From a virus (Duplodnaviria; Heunggongvirae; Uroviricota; Caudoviricetes), in the IMG/VR virus record IMGVR_UViG_2778261464_000012, positions 1 to 14,815 of that record: a stretch of 14,815 nt of DNA. One strand, 5' to 3'. Each line of letters begins with the position of its first letter. Position 1 is the first letter of the stretch. The position numbers and the translations under genes are program-made. The notes under the pieces were generated by a model, which made no database searches, had not been told where the DNA came from, and saw only the letters and a list, made by a program, of their open reading frames with translations. Shown piece by piece: positions 1 through 14,815 of this stretch.

Positions 1-216
1 TTACCCCATTGCTGCGGTTGCCGCAATACCTACACCACCTGCAAAAGTACCGAAAGCTGCACCAGTAGATGTTAGTAACTCATCTACGTTACCAAATGCA
101 CCACCAGCTTTATTATTGAATTCGGATAAACTATTACCCGCATTTTTCAATGATTGCTTCAAGCCAGATTCATTACCTGTGATTTCAAAAATCATTGATT
201 GTTTTTTATTTGCCAT
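1..216 (-). CDS. Tape measure protein, N-terminal fragment (gene continues beyond window start)
   Basis: ATG at 216..214 directly follows the G/GT chaperone reading frames, the conserved position of the tape measure gene. The translation MANKKQSMIFEITGNESGLKQSLK...AGGAFGN...GAAFGTFAGGVGIAATAAMG is a Gly/Ala-rich N-terminus typical of tape measure proteins. The ORF is open to the window edge. Confidence 0.6.
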   Translation of the reverse strand: MANKKQSMIFEITGNESGLKQSLKNAGNSLSEFNNKAGGAFGNVDELLTSTGAAFGTFAGGVGIAATAAMG

Positions 217-882
217 TTGGCTTTACTCCCATCCATGCGAGCATGTTTGCACGCTGTTGTTTTGCTTGTTCTTCTGCGATCTGCTTCTCCTTCTCTGCTC
301 TTTCTTCTGCCTGTTCTGCACGAGTTTTATTACTAAGCAATCCTAGTGAATCGAATTCTTTAGTACTGAACTTGTGCATATCTTCTTTTCTGATATTTCC
401 AGTACTCAACCATAGAGCTTGCATGATTTCACAATGACGCATTTGATCTACTTGTGCTGAGTTTGGGTCTATAACTGTGTCATAGACGTATATATAAAAG
501 AAAAGCAAAAGGGGCATGGTGTAGAGTTCATCCACACCACACCCCTTATTACGGATTAGTTTTAGAGTTAGTGCAAGAAACGGATCGCTTCTTACTTTTT
601 TTCAATATTATCAATATTTATTGATTCAGAGAAGATACGATCAATCTCTTGGCTTAGTTTCATCTGTACTGATAATTCTACGTTTTCTTCAATCTGTTCT
701 GGTGATTCGAATAGTGGTTTACCTTCGTCATCAACTACACAATGATAGATAATTTTGAATGGTGTAGTACATTGGGAATATTGAGCTAGTGAAGGCATAC
801 GAATTTTCACAACTACATTTGGTGCTAGTTCAAATTCGTGGGTTTTTACTCCAATCACGCTCATTAAATCATTTAGGTTCAT
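206..882 (-). CDS. Tail assembly chaperone G-T fusion product made by programmed -1 ribosomal frameshift
   Basis: The -1 frame is open from 601 down to the TAA at 208..206 and overlaps the last codons of the 96-aa G ORF. A slippery heptamer A_AAA_AAG lies exactly in the overlap. The 109-aa ORF in the track (206..535) is the downstream part of this frame. Position immediately upstream of the tape measure gene matches the conserved G/GT arrangement of tailed phages. Confidence 0.6.
592..882 (-). CDS. Tail assembly chaperone (gpG-like), 96 aa
   Basis: ATG at 882..880 is preceded by AAGGAAG with about a 6-nt spacer. The ORF lies between the major tail protein gene and the tape measure gene and ends inside a slippery site. 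Confidence 0.65.
   Translation of the reverse strand: MNLNDLMSVIGVKTHEFELAPNVVVKIRMPSLAQYSQCTTPFKIIYHCVVDDEGKPLFESPEQIEENVELSVQMKLSQEIDRIFSESINIDNIEKK
595..601 (-). other. -1 frameshift slippery heptamer A_AAA_AAG
   Basis: Plus-strand 595..601 is CTTTTTT, so the minus strand reads AAAAAAG. The zero-frame codons are GAA AAA AAG TAA; after a -1 slip the frame continues AAA AAA GTA AGA AGC... (KKVRSDPFLALTL...) with no stop until 206. Confidence 0.6.
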
Positions 883-919
883 TTGTATCTTCCTTGAATT
901 ATGGTTTTATTGATATTAT

Positions 920-1390
920 TTAGTCACCAGCAGTTTCACCGCTTGCAACTGGAGCACCAGTAACTACAAATGTATATTCACGTTGTGCTTGTGAATCAAA
1001 ATCACCAGCAGTAGTGTTAGTAGAGATATAACCGTTAACAACTTGGAAGTAAGAAGCACCATCAGTACCAGTAAGGTTCTCATAGTAAGTTACACGTAGT
1101 TGTACTTTGGTTAGGTTATCTGCATAAGTGTTAAGTAGTTCTTGACCAACTGCACCAGGAATCCAGTTGACAGTTAGAGAAATATCAGGAACGTTTTTAG
1201 AACCAGGTAGTTTCTCTGCATAAAGTTCACCGAAACTATTCACAGTAGCCATATTGGTTTCTGCCCCCGCGACGGCAGGGAAAGCTGCTACCTTCTCAAC
1301 TACAGTAAAGGTTGTTGCAACACCACTAACAGGAGCTAAAGCAATCTCAACTTTGACATTGTTAGCCATAAACATATTTTTAAATGCCAT
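920..1390 (-). CDS. Major tail (tube) protein, 156 aa
   Basis: It sits immediately upstream of the G/GT chaperone genes. ATG at 1390..1388 is preceded by AGGAAAAAAAG. The LTVNWIPG motif and overall pattern resemble lambda gpV-type tube proteins (by recall, not by search). Confidence 0.6.
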   Translation of the reverse strand: MAFKNMFMANNVKVEIALAPVSGVATTFTVVEKVAAFPAVAGAETNMATVNSFGELYAEKLPGSKNVPDISLTVNWIPGAVGQELLNTYADNLTKVQLRVTYYENLTGTDGASYFQVVNGYISTNTTAGDFDSQAQREYTFVVTGAPVASGETAGD

Positions 1391-1412
1391 TTCTTTTTTT
1401 CCTATTTAAAGT

Positions 1413-1433
1413 GGGTAACAGATCTTGTTACCC
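1413..1433 (-). other. Intergenic stem-loop between the 952-aa gene and the major tail protein gene
   Basis: Perfect inverted repeat GGGTAACA (1413..1420), 5-nt loop GATCT, TGTTACCC (1426..1433). It lies between the stop of the 952-aa ORF (1444) and the tube gene ATG (1390). No U-tract follows on the minus strand, so it is not a canonical intrinsic terminator. Confidence 0.4.
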
Positions 1434-1443
1434 TTCATTCATC

Positions 1444-4302
1444 TTATTTATGAAGATTGTAGTACTCTATATATAGTCCTAATCCTCTTAGTACTTCCCC
1501 GCTATAAAAGCCAAAGAACATACTATTGTTTTCTGCCGTAGTTGGAGTACCAGAACGTATAGCGGCTGCCCACGTACCATTCATTACATGATTTGACGTG
1601 ATTACCTCATAATAACTTTGTACTTCATCAAACAACATTTGTATTAACTCATCATCTGGATAACCAGCAATTGCCATAGAACAAGCACCTGCTAACCATA
1701 GTCCTGACATATGAGGGGTAAATCCATCATAAATTACTTCACCATTGTTTTTGAAACGTGTTGGTGCATGACCATCATTATTTTTCATAAACCATTTCAA
1801 GTAATTCATCCAGTTTTTACAGTACTGAATTATATTAGAGGGGATTGCATAATCACCACGTGACCATAATTCATATACTACGTTACATCCTGCATAGAAT
1901 GCACGTGGTTCATAACCAGACCAAGCCTCTGAATACCAGTGATCCATAATGAATGTATCTACTTTCTCACCTGCTGGTAAGTACGCTAATGCGTCCTGAC
2001 GGTTCCATACAAACGCCTGAGCACATGGACCTGGTACAGTAGGATGAAATTTATTAGTAAACCCGTCCTGTGAATCACATAAGAACTTGATACTATTATT
2101 TAGTCTTACTGTATCAATAGTAGTTCCTTTAAAACACCATACTGTAGGTAATTGGTAGCCCGGATACGGAAGACCACGCCAGCCAGAATATAACTGTGCA
2201 TATGGATCTGTAATGTTACTGAACGGTATTAGACCGGGAGTATATGCAAGGCTATCTAACATATAGTCTCTGATAGTACAGTTACCAAGACGTGCCGTAT
2301 AACCACTATCAGTACTGTCATTGAATGTTAAATTAACTAGTACAGAATAGTCACCAGTACCGCCATCGTTATATAGTTCTGGTAGATCGTTTATACAGTA
2401 CCAATCTATACGCCCTGAAACGCCGTCTATCGGGTCATCATCTAATAGTAAGGTAAAGTCCTCTAGTTGTGTTAATGTCACTGCTGCGGGCTGCTCATCG
2501 CCTTCTACGTGGTTTGGTTGATAACTGTTTAGTTTAAAATCTAACTGCGTTAAATCTTTAGTTACCCATTCACCACCACTAGCAGGTAACATAGTCCACC
2601 ATCTCCAACCATCTGGATCGGTAACACGTAAGTTAAAGTCATCATTATATGTACGATAGGTGAATGATTTTAAATCTTGTCTCTCATCGTCATAGATATA
2701 GAATCCTACAACCATCCCGCCGTCACCATCCATAGTACTGGTGATTACGTTGTCATAGTACTTACCAGCTATTCCAGATACATACTCAAACCTAGTGACA
2801 GTATTAGAACCATAATCAGAGACATTACGCATATCTGCGGTTAGGTATTCACCACCATCAGGACGTTTAACACGGGTAAAGTGATTCATTGGTACATCCA
2901 TTACCGTAATAGAACCATTTGGGTTAGTATTTGGAATACCGCAACGGTATAGTGTTGAACCCTCTTCTACTTTCGTCTTATTCACTGTCATTTTAACAGC
3001 GAGTCCTAGAGCTACACCAGTAGTATCAACACCGCCACATTCAATATGGAATTTTGAGTTATTATTAAACTTAAACCAAATTGATTGTTGTTCTAGGGTA
3101 GTCTGTGCTGATGCACTTTGATTAATTACAATATAACCTTCGGCATCACGTGAATAAGTTGCAATTCGATCACTTGGGTAGAAATAATCATATGAAATAC
3201 CATCAGTGAATGGCGTTGTTGCAATTGTACTCTTACGGAAGAACATATCAAATCTATCAATATCTGAATAACCATAACAAGTAAGTAGTGAACACTGCCA
3301 CGCTAGATAGTGTTTACGTTCCCCTGTAATATCCCATAGCATTTTAGATGCAAGACAGAACCACAATTCAGCATCTGATGCATTATCAGCGAAATCAAGA
3401 CTACCGTAATTATCAATTGGTACGTTTACCGGGCGGTTGTGCCAACGTTCATTACGTTTAAACATATAACCGCCATGTTCTACGGGGTTACGTGTTGCAT
3501 AGTTGAAACGGTAATTACCATTAATAGAAGTATCTTTAAGCTGTACTGTACCGATCTGGCTTGTTATTCCCTGTTCCAGTACATCACCGTTACTGTCAAC
3601 CTTGCGGCCTGTACGGTCGATAATCCAATCTACATCATAAGTTGGTGCTTTGGTCTTCCAATCAGTTGTACCGTCTTCTAACCACATATATGCAGTTGCG
3701 TTAACTTGGTTCCAACCTAGTGATGCACGTTCTGGAAAGGCGAACCATACAGCGTCCAAGTACTCACCATAGTTTGGAGCACCAGAAGGTATCTTAGTTT
3801 GTCCATTTACCCAATTGAATAACACCCCTTTAAAGCCGCCATGTGTCGGATATTCGGGATCTAGTGGGTAGTTTGCCAGTACTGGAGCCTTACCATTACA
3901 AATCCAATTACAACGTAATGCCGTACTTGGTGGATCTGGAAATGGTACACCACGATAGAATGCTAAATGATATGCATCAAAATATTCTTTTGCTTTCTCT
4001 AGATAGTATGGTTCTTTAGTTGCTTGGTAGCAGTGAATAGCACCTAGTATTTGTAGGGATTGTCCTTCGGTAGTTGCATCACCATCTGGTTGTGCTTCCC
4101 ACTGAGTTTGTGCGATAAAGTGTCTATTGTTTGCAAGTACATTATCTGGATTTAAAACATAGTGCTGAGTTTTATTATCGGTTGTTAGTCCGGTGTTTCT
4201 GGCGAGGAACTTAAATTGCCCCTCTACCATTTGATACGCGTTATCTAAATTGTGTTTTCTAATCATTAGTGTAGATCTGCCATTAGTAAGGAGCCGAACC
4301 AC
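1444..4302 (-). CDS. Large (about 940-952 aa) Trp/Tyr/Cys-rich protein of unknown function; possibly a virion-associated carbohydrate-active enzyme
   Basis: Long uninterrupted ORF in the operon strand. Start is ambiguous: GTG at 4302, or ATG at 4266..4264 overlapping the upstream TAA (TAATG coupling). Composition and motifs (GQSLQILGAIHCYQAT, WYSEAWSGYEPRAFYAGCNVVYELW, GLWLAGACSMAIAGY) look like a globular enzyme rather than a fibre or sheath; this is inference only. Confidence 0.8.
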   Translation of the reverse strand: MVRLLTNGRSTLMIRKHNLDNAYQMVEGQFKFLARNTGLTTDNKTQHYVLNPDNVLANNRHFIAQTQWEAQPDGDATTEGQSLQILGAIHCYQATKEPYYLEKAKEYFDAYHLAFYRGVPFPDPPSTALRCNWICNGKAPVLANYPLDPEYPTHGGFKGVLFNWVNGQTKIPSGAPNYGEYLDAVWFAFPERASLGWNQVNATAYMWLEDGTTDWKTKAPTYDVDWIIDRTGRKVDSNGDVLEQGITSQIGTVQLKDTSINGNYRFNYATRNPVEHGGYMFKRNERWHNRPVNVPIDNYGSLDFADNASDAELWFCLASKMLWDITGERKHYLAWQCSLLTCYGYSDIDRFDMFFRKSTIATTPFTDGISYDYFYPSDRIATYSRDAEGYIVINQSASAQTTLEQQSIWFKFNNNSKFHIECGGVDTTGVALGLAVKMTVNKTKVEEGSTLYRCGIPNTNPNGSITVMDVPMNHFTRVKRPDGGEYLTADMRNVSDYGSNTVTRFEYVSGIAGKYYDNVITSTMDGDGGMVVGFYIYDDERQDLKSFTYRTYNDDFNLRVTDPDGWRWWTMLPASGGEWVTKDLTQLDFKLNSYQPNHVEGDEQPAAVTLTQLEDFTLLLDDDPIDGVSGRIDWYCINDLPELYNDGGTGDYSVLVNLTFNDSTDSGYTARLGNCTIRDYMLDSLAYTPGLIPFSNITDPYAQLYSGWRGLPYPGYQLPTVWCFKGTTIDTVRLNNSIKFLCDSQDGFTNKFHPTVPGPCAQAFVWNRQDALAYLPAGEKVDTFIMDHWYSEAWSGYEPRAFYAGCNVVYELWSRGDYAIPSNIIQYCKNWMNYLKWFMKNNDGHAPTRFKNNGEVIYDGFTPHMSGLWLAGACSMAIAGYPDDELIQMLFDEVQSYYEVITSNHVMNGTWAAAIRSGTPTTAENNSMFFGFYSGEVLRGLGLYIEYYNLHK

Positions 4303-5948
4303 GTACTACCACCATCATAAGAAACAAACTGGAATACATCTGTTGAATCTTTCGTAAATGTCAGTACTGGTACACGCCCATAAGACCATAAAATTGAATC
4401 AGGCCATGATATTTTATTTGCCCCTGTGCCTTGTTTCATAGCTACAGTGAAAGATTGAGTATTCTTACTATTACCACTTGCGTTAACAATGGTAAAATTA
4501 GTTGTTCCTGCTGATAGTGTAACAGTGAATGCAGTCTTACTATCTGATAAATCAATCTCTAGGCTAGTGCCTGTGAGTGTATTTAGTGCTAATAGATCAT
4601 CTACAATTGTTACTTTTGTATCAATATTGGCTTGTAATACCTTGTCTTTATCATCAATTTGTTTCTTTGAATATGTTCCAACATCATCATAGTTCAAAGT
4701 AATATCACTGTTTAGGGCATAGCCATTAATACGGGTGATACGTAGTGCAAATAGATCATTTGATTGGGTACGTGAGTACACATCTGAAATATCTGCGGCT
4801 ACAAGTTGAATGTTAGTACCAGTAAGTGCCTTGTTATTCACTAAGAATGTTTTAGGTACAAAAGTACTGTTACTATAGCTTAGACTTGCCATATCGGTTA
4901 GTTGTGCTGCACCTAGTGTAATATTCCCACTTAATGCCACGCCGTTAATCGTCTGAGTCTTTGCAACAAAGTTAGTATTAGTTTGTGTCTGTGAGTACAC
5001 ATCTAAAATATCTGCCGCAACCAAGTTTAATGAAGTACCAGATAGTGCATGACCATTTAACTGAAATACTTTTGGAACAAATGTATTAGTGATATAAGTT
5101 TGTGAGTACACATCAGAGATATCTGCGGCTACAAGGGTAATATTCCCCGTTAGCTGTTTACCGTTTATTGTCTGTGTTTTTAGTACATAGTTATCTAGGC
5201 TTGCACTGGAGGCTGCACCAAGTTCTGTTAGTGTTGGTTTATCTGCACTTGTATAGACTTTGTACCATGCACCCATAGATGTTCCGTAGTTACGGACGTT
5301 TATAATTGGTGTACCAGTTTTACTAATTACTAATTGAGTACCAAAGTTTGTATCAAGATTATTAATACCTAGAACATCAGTACCAGTTGGTGAAGTAGTA
5401 GATGGAATCTTAATAAATCCGTTACCGTCGCGTTCTTGCCAGCTTGGGAAAGTAGTTCCATTAGAGCCAACGCCATAATCACCACGGTTTAGCGGTACTG
5501 TAGTTTCATCAAGTATACCAGCACTTACTAATGCAGTTGGTGCAAAGGTATATGTTTTAGTTACTACATTATCATAACTACCAGCAGTTGATGTAGATGT
5601 AAGAACACCGTTATACATTGCATATGGAACGGTAGTATCATCTGCACCTTCATCTGGCATTTCAATTTTCATCTGAACTTCTTCACCAGAAGATACTAAA
5701 TCATCTAGAAATTGGTGTACGGATGGAACCCAATTAACGGTGATCGTTACGTCATTATGAGACATATCACCAACTTCTTTAGCCATAAATGTAGAATTAT
5801 ATGGTTCAATTGAAGTAACTTGTGTGGTAGCACCTACTACTGGAAATGAAGCCAGCTTTTCAACTTGTTCAAATGCTTTTGAATTTGGATCGGTATTAAG
5901 TGTGTTAGTATTAATCCACACTGTTGTGTAGTTAGTTAAGAATGACAT
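4266..5948 (-). CDS. Tail protein (560 aa) with tail-tube-like N-terminal domain and tandem fibre-like repeats
   Basis: Residues about 25-145 align with the 156-aa tube protein (EKLASFPVVG / EKVAAFPAVAG; ITVNWVPS / LTVNWIPG; TKTYTFAPTALVS / REYTFVVTGAPVAS). Residues about 255-423 contain four to five repeats of about 36 aa (KTQTINGKQLTGNITLVAADISDVYSQTYITNTFVP and variants). Confidence 0.8.
   Translation of the reverse strand: MSFLTNYTTVWINTNTLNTDPNSKAFEQVEKLASFPVVGATTQVTSIEPYNSTFMAKEVGDMSHNDVTITVNWVPSVHQFLDDLVSSGEEVQMKIEMPDEGADDTTVPYAMYNGVLTSTSTAGSYDNVVTKTYTFAPTALVSAGILDETTVPLNRGDYGVGSNGTTFPSWQERDGNGFIKIPSTTSPTGTDVLGINNLDTNFGTQLVISKTGTPIINVRNYGTSMGAWYKVYTSADKPTLTELGAASSASLDNYVLKTQTINGKQLTGNITLVAADISDVYSQTYITNTFVPKVFQLNGHALSGTSLNLVAADILDVYSQTQTNTNFVAKTQTINGVALSGNITLGAAQLTDMASLSYSNSTFVPKTFLVNNKALTGTNIQLVAADISDVYSRTQSNDLFALRITRINGYALNSDITLNYDDVGTYSKKQIDDKDKVLQANIDTKVTIVDDLLALNTLTGTSLEIDLSDSKTAFTVTLSAGTTNFTIVNASGNSKNTQSFTVAMKQGTGANKISWPDSILWSYGRVPVLTFTKDSTDVFQFVSYDGGSTWFGSLLMADLH
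4680..5186 (-). repeat. Tandem in-frame coding repeats of about 105-110 bp (4-5 copies) inside the 560-aa gene
   Basis: Near-identical DNA blocks are visible, for example GTGAGTACACATCTGAAATATCTGCGGCTACAAG near 4770, GTGAGTACACATCTAAAATATCTGCCGCAACCAAG near 4995, and GTGAGTACACATCAGAGATATCTGCGGCTACAAG near 5105. They correspond to the protein repeats ...LVAADISDVYSQT.... Confidence 0.7.
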
Positions 5949-5950
5949 TA

Positions 5951-6388
5951 TTATTCCCCGTAGCTAAATGTAATTGATTGCGTATGTACATACATTGTTT
6001 TTTGTGCTTCGGCTTGAGTTGTCATTAAACTATCACCAACTAGTACATTATAAATTGGCATCCTTAGTAGTTTGTTTAAATCATCTAAGAATCCCTTAGC
6101 AAAAATTGCCTCTAGAATCTTTTCAATTTCTTCTGAGGCATTTTTAAAGTCTTCGGCAACTGATACGAAATCAATACGAAATTCACAAAGGTTTTGTACT
6201 TCTTGCGGTACTATTTGTGCCGCGATTACTGGCATATTTTGAGGAATCTTATTTCTCATTACTGAACTTTCCCCAATATAAACCATAGCTTTTTTATCTA
6301 CTGATGCTTTCGATGGAAAATGAAGATTCGCTTTAGTACTTAATCTGTTGGTTAGGTACTTTCTGATTGTATAGTCTGCCGTGTACAT
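5951..6388 (-). CDS. Putative head-tail connector / tail completion protein, 145 aa
   Basis: Small ORF packed between the capsid gene and the tail genes, separated from its neighbours by 1-2 nt. Assignment is by position and size only. Confidence 0.45.
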   Translation of the reverse strand: MYTADYTIRKYLTNRLSTKANLHFPSKASVDKKAMVYIGESSVMRNKIPQNMPVIAAQIVPQEVQNLCEFRIDFVSVAEDFKNASEEIEKILEAIFAKGFLDDLNKLLRMPIYNVLVGDSLMTTQAEAQKTMYVHTQSITFSYGE

Positions 6389-6389
6389 A

Positions 6390-6683
6390 TTAGATATCCT
6401 CTAAATTAATCTGTTGAATATAGTGATAATCTGAGATTCCACTCAAATCATCATCTATTCTATTTACTATGTAGGTAGTGCCATTATGTTCAAAAGTAAT
6501 ACCCACTGGTAAACCAGTTTCAGAAGTGAAATAGTTCACGGTAGATTCTGCATCTTCAAAAAAAATCTCGTCTTGCTCGAATATCACTGTAACAGTACTT
6601 GTTACTCCATCCTGAACAATGACGAGATCTTCACCGAAAGAATCTAGTAGTGATCTTTTTTGAGCTTTACTAAATCCTCTCAT
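6390..6683 (-). CDS. Putative head completion / head-tail joining protein, 97 aa
   Basis: Small ORF starting 6 nt after the capsid gene stop, at the typical position of head-tail adaptor genes. Assignment is by position only. Confidence 0.45.
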   Translation of the reverse strand: MRGFSKAQKRSLLDSFGEDLVIVQDGVTSTVTVIFEQDEIFFEDAESTVNYFTSETGLPVGITFEHNGTTYIVNRIDDDLSGISDYHYIQQINLEDI

Positions 6684-6688
6684 ATATA

Positions 6689-13094
<6,406 letters not shown>

Positions 13095-13099
13095 ATGTT

Positions 13100-13303
13100 T
13101 TGTGTACATCTAAAATGTCACATACAATTGAAAGCAATCGGTGCCGAAAACTCGCGTTGATAATCAGGCTGGAGGAGTACCTAAATTATTAGTTTCACTT
13201 AATTAGGTTGATTAAAAGCACTTACATTTCATTTTACTTGATCATTATTACAATGTAACATTGCAAGCACATACACATTGCCGTTCAAGAAGGAATATCC
13301 AAA
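13100..13303. promoter_or_regulatory. Divergent intergenic control region; candidate location of cos and of the DUF3800-gene promoter
   Basis: About 200 bp non-coding stretch between divergently arranged terS and the DUF3800-like gene. It contains three TTGAT(A/T/C)A motifs and a direct repeat ACATTGC...ACATTGC just upstream of the plus-strand RBS. Exact promoter and cos positions cannot be fixed from sequence alone. Confidence 0.3.
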
Positions 13304-14425
13304 TTGGTAAAAAATGTCTACTTCGACGAATCAGGGTTTACAGGTAATAACTTACTTTCAAAAGATCAGCCTTTTTTTAGTTACGCTGCAGTCGTGACTG
13401 ATGAAGAGGAAAGTAAACAGTTTGTAGATTACATAATACAAAAGTACTCGATCGCAGCCGAAGAGCTAAAAGGTAGCACTCTCGTTAATAGCAAGAGATT
13501 ACAACCAGCCGTAGATGAGATACTTAATCATTTCCGTGGACGTATGCGTGTGGTTGTTAACGAAAAGAAATATGCCCTTTCAGGAAAATTCTTTGAATAT
13601 ATTTTCGAGCCAGTATTAGCAGCTAAAAGCTCAATATTTTACAACCTTAAATTCCACCTATTCATATCCAATATAATGTATTTTTCTTTAATAGCTAAGG
13701 ATGAGTATTCTGAACTATTGCATTCTCGATTTGAAGATTTTTCACGAGGTAAAATATTAGTTAATAGTTTTATCGAACCAGTTATTGGTACTAAAAACTC
13801 TGAAATTATGATGGACATTCATGATTTCGCCAAGCATAACATTTCAATAATTGAAGAGGAATATGAAGGTCTCGAGGGCACTGGGGTTGATAAATGGTTG
13901 TTAGATTTGACAACGACTTCTCTTTATAATCTCTTATGCGATATGAGTAGTAAGTTTGGTACATTGAGAGCTATATGTGATAGTTCAAAACCATTAATTA
14001 CCCAACAAGACGCATTCAATGAGATGATAGGTAATGATGAAATTGTGTTCGAGACCTTTAATAATAAAAAAATCCCGATCACATTCAAACTATCTGAGCC
14101 CATAATCCTTTCTGATTCTAAAGTCACGCATGGTATACAAATTGCTGATGTGATAGCTGCAGCCAGCATTTATGTGCTTAATAAGAAAAAATCGAAAGAA
14201 AGATATCACTCCAAATGGCTAACTCATTTCGAAGATGAGATTTTTTATTGGCAATGTTGTGTTGTTCCCACACCTGAAAATCTTGATCCTAAAAATGTAA
14301 ACAATTATTTGAACAGATATATATTGCAAGAAATTGCTGAACGAAGCAGAAAATCACTACCTGTTTTAGATGATATTGAAAAAGAAATCATGCGAATTTC
14401 CAGAACATTAGCCATGGTGCGTTGA
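13304..14425 (+). CDS. DUF3800-like protein (373 aa), function unknown; candidate phage moron / accessory gene
   Basis: The only long plus-strand ORF not antisense to a structural gene. TTG start at 13304 is preceded by AAGAAGGAA at about 9 nt. The N-terminus VKNVYFDESG and the C-terminal SKVTHGIQIADVIAAA match, by recall, the DESG and GxQxAD signature of DUF3800. It looks AT-richer than the structural genes by eye. Confidence 0.75.
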   Translation: MVKNVYFDESGFTGNNLLSKDQPFFSYAAVVTDEEESKQFVDYIIQKYSIAAEELKGSTLVNSKRLQPAVDEILNHFRGRMRVVVNEKKYALSGKFFEYIFEPVLAAKSSIFYNLKFHLFISNIMYFSLIAKDEYSELLHSRFEDFSRGKILVNSFIEPVIGTKNSEIMMDIHDFAKHNISIIEEEYEGLEGTGVDKWLLDLTTTSLYNLLCDMSSKFGTLRAICDSSKPLITQQDAFNEMIGNDEIVFETFNNKKIPITFKLSEPIILSDSKVTHGIQIADVIAAASIYVLNKKKSKERYHSKWLTHFEDEIFYWQCCVVPTPENLDPKNVNNYLNRYILQEIAERSRKSLPVLDDIEKEIMRISRTLAMVR

Positions 14426-14430
14426 AGTAT

Positions 14431-14473
14431 ATATCCTCATGCTATGTTATTAGCACCAGTAGCATGAGGATAT
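14431..14473 (+). terminator. Inverted repeat downstream of the DUF3800-like gene (possible terminator or protein-binding dyad)
   Basis: ATATCCTCATGCT (14431..14443) and AGCATGAGGATAT (14461..14473) form a perfect 13-bp stem with a 17-nt loop, starting 6 nt after the stop codon. A T-run (TTATTTTT) lies about 14 nt downstream, so it is not a textbook intrinsic terminator. Confidence 0.3.
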
Positions 14474-14815
14474 CATATGTAATTCAATTATTTTTACCAT
14501 GACCAATATATTTAATCAATTAATGATTTGACCTCAATAATTGTTTAGCTATATTAATACATTCTTGAATCCTTTCCTCGCGTATTAGACACGTAGTACT
14601 GCCATTGTCCATCTGGTAGATTGGATTATAGATGCGACCGCAATCACTCTGGAACTGAGGCCGGTAATACTTCACTCCGTTACGTGTAGTTGCCACTTCA
14701 GTACATCCCCAGCAATGAGCCGACAGCCGTGTATTTCTATCTGCGGCTGGATTTCCACTCCGAGCAACTGCCCATTAAGAGTCGTAATCGGTACAGCCCA
14801 GTACTGGATGTTCAT

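Follow-up and report, generated by a model that had tools for sequence, protein, structure and literature searches.

What does a large, enzyme-like gene do in a lambda-ordered late operon at a place where phage lambda has small genes only? The question is raised by the IMG/VR virus record IMGVR_UViG_2778261464_000012 (Caudoviricetes), of which we analysed positions 1 to 14,815, a stretch of 14,815 nucleotides (nt) that is called the window in the following. Between two connector-type genes and the gene of the major tail tube protein it carries an open reading frame (ORF) listed with 952 amino acids (aa). An earlier note on this DNA had described its product as a Trp/Cys-rich protein, possibly an alpha/alpha-toroid hydrolase or lyase, which would be either an enzyme of the virion or a non-structural cargo gene embedded in the operon. 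We regard it as reasonably probable that the ORF product is the distal head of an accessory side fibre, turned towards the host surface, in a lambda-like siphoviral prophage; a mechanism for this fibre is proposed below. The reading of the product as a virion-associated enzyme is plausible.

The ORF product belongs to the phi92 gp141 family

The ORF is truly coding beyond doubt, because hundreds of homologues with 42-100% identity exist. The large ORF between the connector genes and the tube gene is therefore real, a length of 940 aa being likelier than 952 aa. The ORF list gives 1444..4302 on the minus strand with a GTG start, a reading which is probably too long. The ATG at 4266 overlaps the TAA stop codon of the upstream 560-aa gene as TAATG (with the A shared), the database proteins which are 100% identical to the ORF product have 940 aa, and the alignment with gp17 of phage S144 opens at residue 9 in both proteins; for these reasons the ATG is favoured as the true start. 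The TAATG overlap also couples translation of the 940-aa gene to that of the 560-aa fibre gene. With 3.0% Trp and 6.7% Tyr the protein lies clearly above the other proteins of the window (Trp 0-1.7%, Tyr 2-4.8%), so that this part of the composition described before was confirmed. Cys (1.7%, 16 residues) merely reaches the upper end of the range of the other proteins and is not remarkable.

The product matches phrog_2871 ('tail protein') with E = 0 and 1229 bits over residues 12-950 of the 952-aa reading. In a translated search 531 phage records matched, and in 521 of these the match spans 80% or more of the query; the records are mostly those of rV5/phi92-like coliphages as well as Salmonella, Vibrio and Erwinia phages. 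The best among the matches listed show 54-55% identity over the full length and come from phi92-like phages. S144 gp17, which is annotated in its record as a homologue of phi92 gp141, is 42% identical to the ORF product, again over the full length, and the homologue of phage JohannJBalmer (bas62_0025), which corresponds to phi92 gp141, is annotated as 'lateral tail fiber protein with several glycosidase domains'. Phi92 gp141 itself appears as a 'glycosidase' tail fibre/spike protein in the table of a review, with reference to Schwarzer 2012 (PMC5380687). A 2026 phi92 paper based on cryo-electron microscopy describes a 'fiber II' without an assigned gene and does not mention gp141. A profile search among 1.84 billion representatives yielded 388 clusters, all of which are large tail-type proteins or fragments thereof. 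Pfam found no domain on the full-length product and a PDB sequence search with it found no relative.

By its similarity over the whole length the ORF product is a member of the phi92 gp141/PHROG 2871 tail-protein family. This family was already known, without a solved structure or an assigned place in the virion, and the ORF adds one more member to it. With 531 phage records, including the therapeutically popular rV5/phi92-like coliphages, gp141-like proteins are common; nevertheless both genes, this one and that of the 560-aa protein, are still named 'hypothetical' in many Enterobacter, Klebsiella, Cronobacter and E. coli prophages.

A homologue is present in the virion

S144 gp17 was detected by electrospray ionisation tandem mass spectrometry in purified virions with 25 peptides and a coverage of 33%; gp16 was detected as well, and the fibre chaperones of S144 were not (PMC7432712). 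The 42%-identical homologue is thereby shown to be a virion protein and, by homology, the 940-aa protein should be part of the particle, too. This finding bears on the possibility that the 940-aa protein is a morphogenetic factor, that is, an enzyme or chaperone of fibre or tail assembly without function in the infecting particle. Such a role would agree with the name 'tail formation protein' which one homologue (P0052) bears in the database, and with the situation of the gene, which has assembly genes around it and is coupled in translation to the fibre gene. However, we consider it very unlikely in view of the peptides from S144 virions, of a size of 940 aa and CBM-like (carbohydrate-binding module) domains which are unlike known fibre chaperones, and of the fact that the gp141-like body also occurs fused into J-like and fibre proteins. 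One of these fusions is a 2033-aa J-like Phage-tail_3 protein (P0326), which carries the body at its C-terminal end and supports a distal role.

The 560-aa partner protein and a portable cassette

The N-terminus of the 560-aa protein matches PF16461 (E = 5.7e-6; 26.7 bits, just over the cut-off of 26.1) and phrog_158 (1.8e-16), and is 30% identical to the tube protein of the phage itself (E = 6e-14). Lambda gpV provides the top Foldseek matches (probability 1.0) of a model which is of low confidence outside aa 7-147. By sequence and fold similarity this N-terminal domain is a paralogue of the tube protein.

The C-terminus of the 560-aa protein matches phrog_9017 and is 45% identical (E = 2e-30) to a gp140 homologue of 157 aa, which in phi92-like phages is encoded just upstream of the gp141 homologue. 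A gp140-like domain ends the gene directly upstream of the gp141-like gene in five virion backgrounds (E = 1e-10 to 4e-34), namely in phi92-like phages, S144/Rosemount-like Salmonella phages, a P2/HP1-like Pseudomonas prophage, a Shewanella contig with a P22-type portal and the present siphovirus. In their N-terminal parts these upstream proteins are mutually unrelated. Shared gp140-like C-termini combined with unrelated N-termini are the pattern expected if the domain serves as a dock for the gp141-like protein while the N-terminus is adapted to the respective virion. The gp140-like domain and the gp141-like body thus look like a portable adaptor-plus-head cassette.

A conserved fibre locus ahead of the tube gene

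With the tube protein as query 73 IMG/VR loci were retrieved, 64 of which contain enough upstream DNA to be assessed. As they were chosen by tube homology, these loci sample one lineage and not siphoviruses in general. In all 64 a tube-domain-anchored protein (277-1007 aa) is encoded ahead of the tube gene. The slot holds another ORF of 400 aa or more in 61 of them, and a gp141-like gene in 30. Close relatives retain the 560/940-type pair. The second genes sampled from other clades encode distal subunits of T4 gp34/36/37-type long tail fibres with Peptidase_S74. In a degraded E. coli prophage (NZ_AP024130.1) and in a lambda-like module of phage DCP80 the slot protein shares the tube-like and the middle domain (32% and 27% identity, respectively), and is followed by ordinary fibre genes encoding a pyocin-knob protein, a phrog_6578 protein with Peptidase_S74 and a gp37-like N-terminus. 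The gene order around the two connector-type genes, which bound the fibre slot on the head side, is kept in relatives. Taken together, the compared loci point to a conserved two-part fibre locus, in which the gp140/141 pair is one interchangeable distal cassette.

The position of the gene, which the earlier note had called atypical, is therefore the usual one in this lineage and unusual only in comparison with lambda. The synteny comparison proposed there for an insertion of the pair returned a fibre slot at every assessable locus, with the pair in just under half of them. This removes the idea of an inserted cargo, according to which the gene would be a non-structural (moron) enzyme that benefits the lysogen. 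Its large and enzyme-like product at a site of small lambda genes had made that idea attractive. However, the gene shares its strand with its neighbours and overlaps the fibre gene with its start codon, a promoter and terminator scan of 800-6800 stayed at chance level, the GC content resembles that of the neighbours, and the family counts as a tail component by annotation as well as by detection. Together with the conserved slot these data effectively refute the cargo reading.

Two of the records compared are unusual in themselves. The E. coli prophage in NZ_AP024130.1 (1823562-1853252) is decaying, with its terminase, portal, capsid and fibre genes each in several annotated pieces. The record of Escherichia phage DCP80 (PQ671644.1, 141 kb), classified as a T4-like Gaprivervirus, opens with a full lambda-like siphoviral packaging, head and tail module (1-18536) which includes a tube-anchored fibre pair; this may point to a chimeric assembly or to prophage DNA within the record.

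Predicted fold and conservation

For the 940-aa protein an AlphaFold2 model was calculated from a family alignment of 44 sequences with 42-92% identity. It reached a predicted local distance difference test score (pLDDT) of 88.2 and a predicted template modelling score (pTM) of 0.84. The model shows eleven long helices in three stretches (aa 2-103, 297-334 and 716-939) and beta-rich inserts at aa 119-288 and 347-689, that is, a predicted (alpha/alpha)6 barrel of the glycoside-hydrolase (GH) type which is interrupted by two beta-sandwich inserts. Foldseek matched the barrel to GH48 and one of the inserts, without localising which, to the CBM11 structures 1v0a and 6r31 (probability 1.00, template modelling score 0.56-0.58 relative to the target). 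Pfam on excised segments gave a weak match to CBM_35_2 (E = 0.034). The model and the Foldseek matches bear out the earlier guess of an alpha/alpha-toroid at the level of the fold.

We also weighed whether the ORF product could be a sheath, tape measure, distal tail protein or tail terminator, and rejected these readings on the fold; a further reason is that the full prophage encodes a tape measure, distal-tail candidates and a J-like tip downstream, and no sheath.

In the alignment 108 columns are invariant, including D63, E67, D298, D340, D758 and E924. Conservation peaks in the barrel segments and the first insert, and is lowest at aa 400-520 and 600-640 of the second insert. The two best-conserved segments are the second barrel segment, with 19% invariant residues, and the first insert, with 28 of 170 (16%).

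Is the fibre head an enzyme?

E67 and D298 are each located at the N-terminus of a predicted barrel helix, and both are invariant in 44 of 44 sequences. Their surroundings resemble motifs of the GH8 enzyme BcsZ from E. coli: ATTEGQS compares with TTSEGQS around E55, and NASDAELW with SASDGDVW around D116. As family motifs of GH8 we used (S/T)EGQ with the proton-donor Glu and A(S/T)D(A/G)D with a conserved Asp. The order of the two residues is the same, and their spacing of 231 residues compares with 61 in BcsZ plus an insert of about 170 aa. PDB entries of BcsZ E55Q (3qxq) and of Asp-to-Ala variants confirm that these are the residues which crystallographers inactivate. NASDAELW is the best BLOSUM match within the protein to the Asp116 motif of BcsZ, and in a shuffle test 70 of 2000 shuffled sequences were as good, which is borderline. 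When the family profile was aligned with BcsZ by hhalign, both runs (whole profile and barrel only) paired E67 with E55, at a probability of just 0.3-0.5%. By eye, the invariant D758 (NRQDALAY) was picked as a candidate for the catalytic base. The motifs around E67 and D298 are a suggestive lead to GH8-like catalysis.

A number of results weigh against a catalytic fibre head as we propose it. The hhalign probability is not significant, and for the acid motif 435 of 2000 shuffles matched as well, which is not significant either. The base motif of BcsZ (D243, YDAIR) has no counterpart, 1946 of 2000 shuffles being as good. Pfam searches with the excised barrel and beta segments at E values up to 10 returned only the weak CBM_35_2 match and no GH8 (PF01270), and the 44-sequence profile found just noise or weak GH76 helix-hairpin repeats among PDB sequences. 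The family is unusually conserved across the hosts E. coli, Vibrio, Pseudomonas and Shewanella, which is atypical for a serotype-specific depolymerase and would also fit a structural role. In long homologues the gp141-like body is extended by a fibre shaft with a Gly-rich tip, and phi92-like phages have additional fibre genes behind that of the gp141 homologue; in those phages the gp141-like protein may therefore be a scaffold and not the tip. As to the partner, the AlphaFold2 model of the 560-aa monomer is poor (pLDDT 43) with only the N-terminal domain usable, and we infer the docking of the 940-aa protein on the gp140-like domain as well as the oligomeric state and the position on the tail.

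For a GH8 comparison a diverse set was attempted from PDB alignments, and the five printed matches were all near-identical BcsZ-type enzymes. Filing the 940-aa protein in GH8 (clan GH-M) was rejected, because the hhalign and motif-shuffle statistics are weak: the barrel fold fits, the sequence and profile similarity is not significant.

The main rival of an enzymatic head is a non-catalytic scaffold or adhesin, which would bind glycans or fibre proteins without cutting them. The protein would be a rigid adaptor, a branching hub or a lectin-like adhesin of the fibre, and its conserved residues would serve folding or contacts. An identity of 42-55% across phages of very different hosts, unlike typical depolymerases, speaks for such a module, as do a body without a significant sequence link to any GH family and the (alpha/alpha)6 barrels known from non-hydrolases (epimerases, cyclases and thioester proteins). 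It would also explain the domains that follow the body in some homologues, namely INGxxL fibre repeats and a Gly_rich_2 tip in one (P0075), and non-contractile tail sheath N-terminal and TIM-barrel domains in another (P0265), and the later fibre genes of phi92-like phages. However, E67 and D298 are invariant at helix N-termini and keep the order and the insert-corrected spacing of E55 and D116 in BcsZ, and the present prophage has no later fibre gene to scaffold. We consider the non-catalytic module rather unlikely.

Proposed mechanism

For a side fibre with an enzymatic head we propose the following. The 560-aa protein would be fixed to the tail via its tube-like N-terminal domain, as a tube ring or within one; that the anchor sits at the head-proximal end of the tube is only a guess from the gene order. 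The repeats of the 560-aa protein would form the shaft and its gp140-like C-terminal domain the docking platform for the 940-aa protein. This head would bind and probably cleave surface polysaccharide by means of a GH8-like acid/base pair, with E67 as putative proton donor and D298 as second active-site Asp, no base residue being named. The virion would thus be concentrated on the cell and helped to the outer membrane, where a separate J-like tip (1176 aa, encoded downstream of the window) would engage the terminal receptor.

More speculatively, the cassette could move among sipho-, myo- and podo-type virions by swapping the N-terminal anchor of the adaptor. The tube paralogue in the tube wall would then be a third mount for siphovirus side fibres besides the collars of lambda Stf and T5 p132, and the head would represent a previously uncharacterised, GH8-related glycanase family acting on a broadly conserved envelope or matrix glycan. 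Such a target would explain the unusual conservation of the family across hosts. We put this extended proposal forward tentatively, as a possible scheme that is more doubtful than probable. A portable cassette and a slot with swappable distal parts would be useful for host-range engineering and prophage annotation. The fold model, the candidate catalytic residues (E67, D298 and D758) and the gp140-like domain of the partner offer handles for biochemistry and for the interpretation of density maps.

Comparison with known systems

One of the closest counterparts is the gp141/gp140 pair of phi92 (Stephanstirmvirinae/Vequintavirinae; PHROG 2871 and PHROG 9017), with which the present locus shares 55% identity over the full length (in phi92-like homologues) and the order of the two genes. 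While phi92, a myovirus of 145 kb, has the pair in its baseplate cluster and makes gp140 as a free protein of 157 aa, here the gp140-like domain is the C-terminus of the 560-aa tube-domain protein in a siphoviral prophage of about 35 kb. In S144 (Loughboroughvirus) and Rosemountvirus-like phages the pair lies between the connector genes and the sheath and tube genes; gp17 matches with 42% identity along its whole length, and a gp140-like domain forms the end of gp16. S144 differs by a contractile tail, by a gp16 N-terminus of coiled-coil type in place of a tube domain, and by two Big_2 proteins encoded after the pair. From GH8 enzymes such as E. coli BcsZ and C. perfringens CPF_2247 (3ren) the 940-aa protein differs by the lack of significant sequence or profile similarity and by a barrel that is interrupted twice, with inserts of about 170 and 340 aa.

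Stf of Ur-lambda and pb1 of T5 (on the p132 collar) are likewise accessory fibres on siphoviruses with a separate central J-type tip. The role of side fibres of this type is likely a fast, reversible first contact, and Stf and p132 are anchored via a dodecameric collar around the junction of tube and distal tail (PMC12617516). Their genes lie downstream of J, whereas here the anchor is a tube paralogue and the genes are upstream of the tube gene. Similar in logic are the decorations of the lactococcal 936 group (TpeX and the neck passage structure), which are auxiliary host-binding devices carrying carbohydrate-binding modules on an extension of the tube protein or on a neck collar (PMC6669499). 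TpeX, however, arises from frameshifting of the tube gene, while here a separate paralogous gene provides a long shaft and a second protein of 940 aa is recruited.

Organization of the window and the prophage

With one exception the long ORFs of the window are encoded by the minus strand, where they make up a lambda-ordered late operon (Table 1). The assignment of the connector-type genes (5951-6683) comes from weak matches to PF05354 (Phage_attach, E = 0.0011) and to phrog_82 (head closure). The 156-aa tube protein matches phrog_158 (E = 6.5e-16), and PF16461 only weakly and below threshold (19.2 bits, E = 0.0012; gathering score 26.1 bits).

Table 1. Genes, domains and other features of the window, in operon order; aa positions of the gp141-like protein refer to the 940-aa reading.
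Feature	Position (nt)	Strand	Remarks
DUF3800 gene	13304-14425	plus	373 aa; just upstream of the packaging genes
Small terminase gene	12478-13059	minus	
Large terminase gene	10650-12563	minus	gpA-type
192-aa ORF		minus	between large terminase and portal genes
Portal gene	8571-10112	minus	
Prohead-protease/major-capsid fusion gene	6689-8668	minus	
Connector-type gene, 97 aa	6390-6683	minus	lambda FII-like
Connector-type gene, 145 aa	5951-6388	minus	
Proximal fibre subunit gene, 560 aa	4266-5948	minus	
Tube-protein-like domain	5514-5948	minus	aa 1-145
Conserved middle domain	5229-5513	minus	aa 146-240
Five repeats of about 37 aa	4611-5183	minus	aa 256-446
gp140-like C-terminal domain	4278-4601	minus	aa 450-557
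gp141-like gene	1444-4302 (GTG); 1444-4266 (ATG)	minus	probable start at the ATG
Barrel segment 1	3913..4266	minus	aa 1-118; helices 2-23, 66-83, 86-103; motif ATTEGQS with invariant D63 and E67 (E67 codon 4066-4068)
Beta insert 1	3403..3912	minus	aa 119-288; predicted strands 122-276
Barrel segment 2	3229..3402	minus	aa 289-346; helices 297-314, 317-334; motif NASDAELW with invariant N295, A296, D298, W302 (D298 codon 3373-3375)
Beta insert 2	2200..3228	minus	aa 347-689; least conserved part
Barrel segment 3	1447..2199	minus	aa 690-940; helices 716-740, 785-803, 810-828, 851-866, 872-884, 920-939; invariant W754, R756, D758, Y762, W782, Y785, R788, E924
Stem-loop GGGUAACA-AGAUC-UGUUACCC	1413..1433	minus	in the 53-nt gap between gp141-like gene and tube gene
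Major tail tube protein gene, 156 aa	920-1390	minus	directly downstream of the gp141-like gene
Two chaperone-position ORFs, 96 and 109 aa	206-882	minus	

On a longer contig the operon continues, after the chaperone-like genes, with an 819-aa tape measure, three small tip proteins (including DUF2163 and DUF6950 proteins), the J-like tip protein and lysis genes, and contains no sheath gene. Proteins identical to those of the window are present in E. coli assemblies, and a relative with 75% identity is integrated in ybhA as a prophage. The element is therefore a lambda-like siphoviral prophage of Enterobacteriaceae, residing in E. coli.

A megablast of the whole window against phage genomes gave no match, and among complete E. 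coli genomes only eight have parts of the window, each at most 28% of it. E. coli G3/10 (NZ_CP060075.1) is 99.9% identical to 11021-14815, a segment that takes in the large terminase gene from its middle onwards, the small terminase gene and the DUF3800 gene, and shares none of the structural genes of the window. As this sharing stops within the terminase, a recombination breakpoint can be placed inside the large terminase gene near 11021.

The capsid fusion ORF (646-659 aa) combines a Peptidase_S78 prohead protease (aa 76-170) with an HK97-type major capsid protein (aa 396-656), and the fusion is kept in all relatives examined. As longest ORFs, the portal and capsid fusion genes overlap by 98 nt (8571-8668) and the small and large terminase genes by 86 nt (12478-12563). 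On two other contigs gene callers let the capsid fusion begin later in both cases (646 aa) and the large terminase in one (601 aa; 637 aa in the other). These genes therefore probably begin downstream of their first start codon.

The two ORFs at the position of the tail chaperones are separated by 56 nt and do not overlap as in the usual G/GT frameshift arrangement. The stem-loop behind the gp141-like gene has a GC-rich stem of 8 bp and an RNA folding energy of -11.6 kcal/mol (z = -3.09 versus shuffled sequences). It lacks a T-run and is therefore not a canonical terminator, nor did the terminator scan call it. It might be a putative RNA stability or processing element which sets the ratio of fibre to tube expression. 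The DUF3800 gene is possibly a moron or defence-type gene; a DUF3800 gene also flanks the unrelated P2-like Pseudomonas prophage carrying a gp141-like gene.

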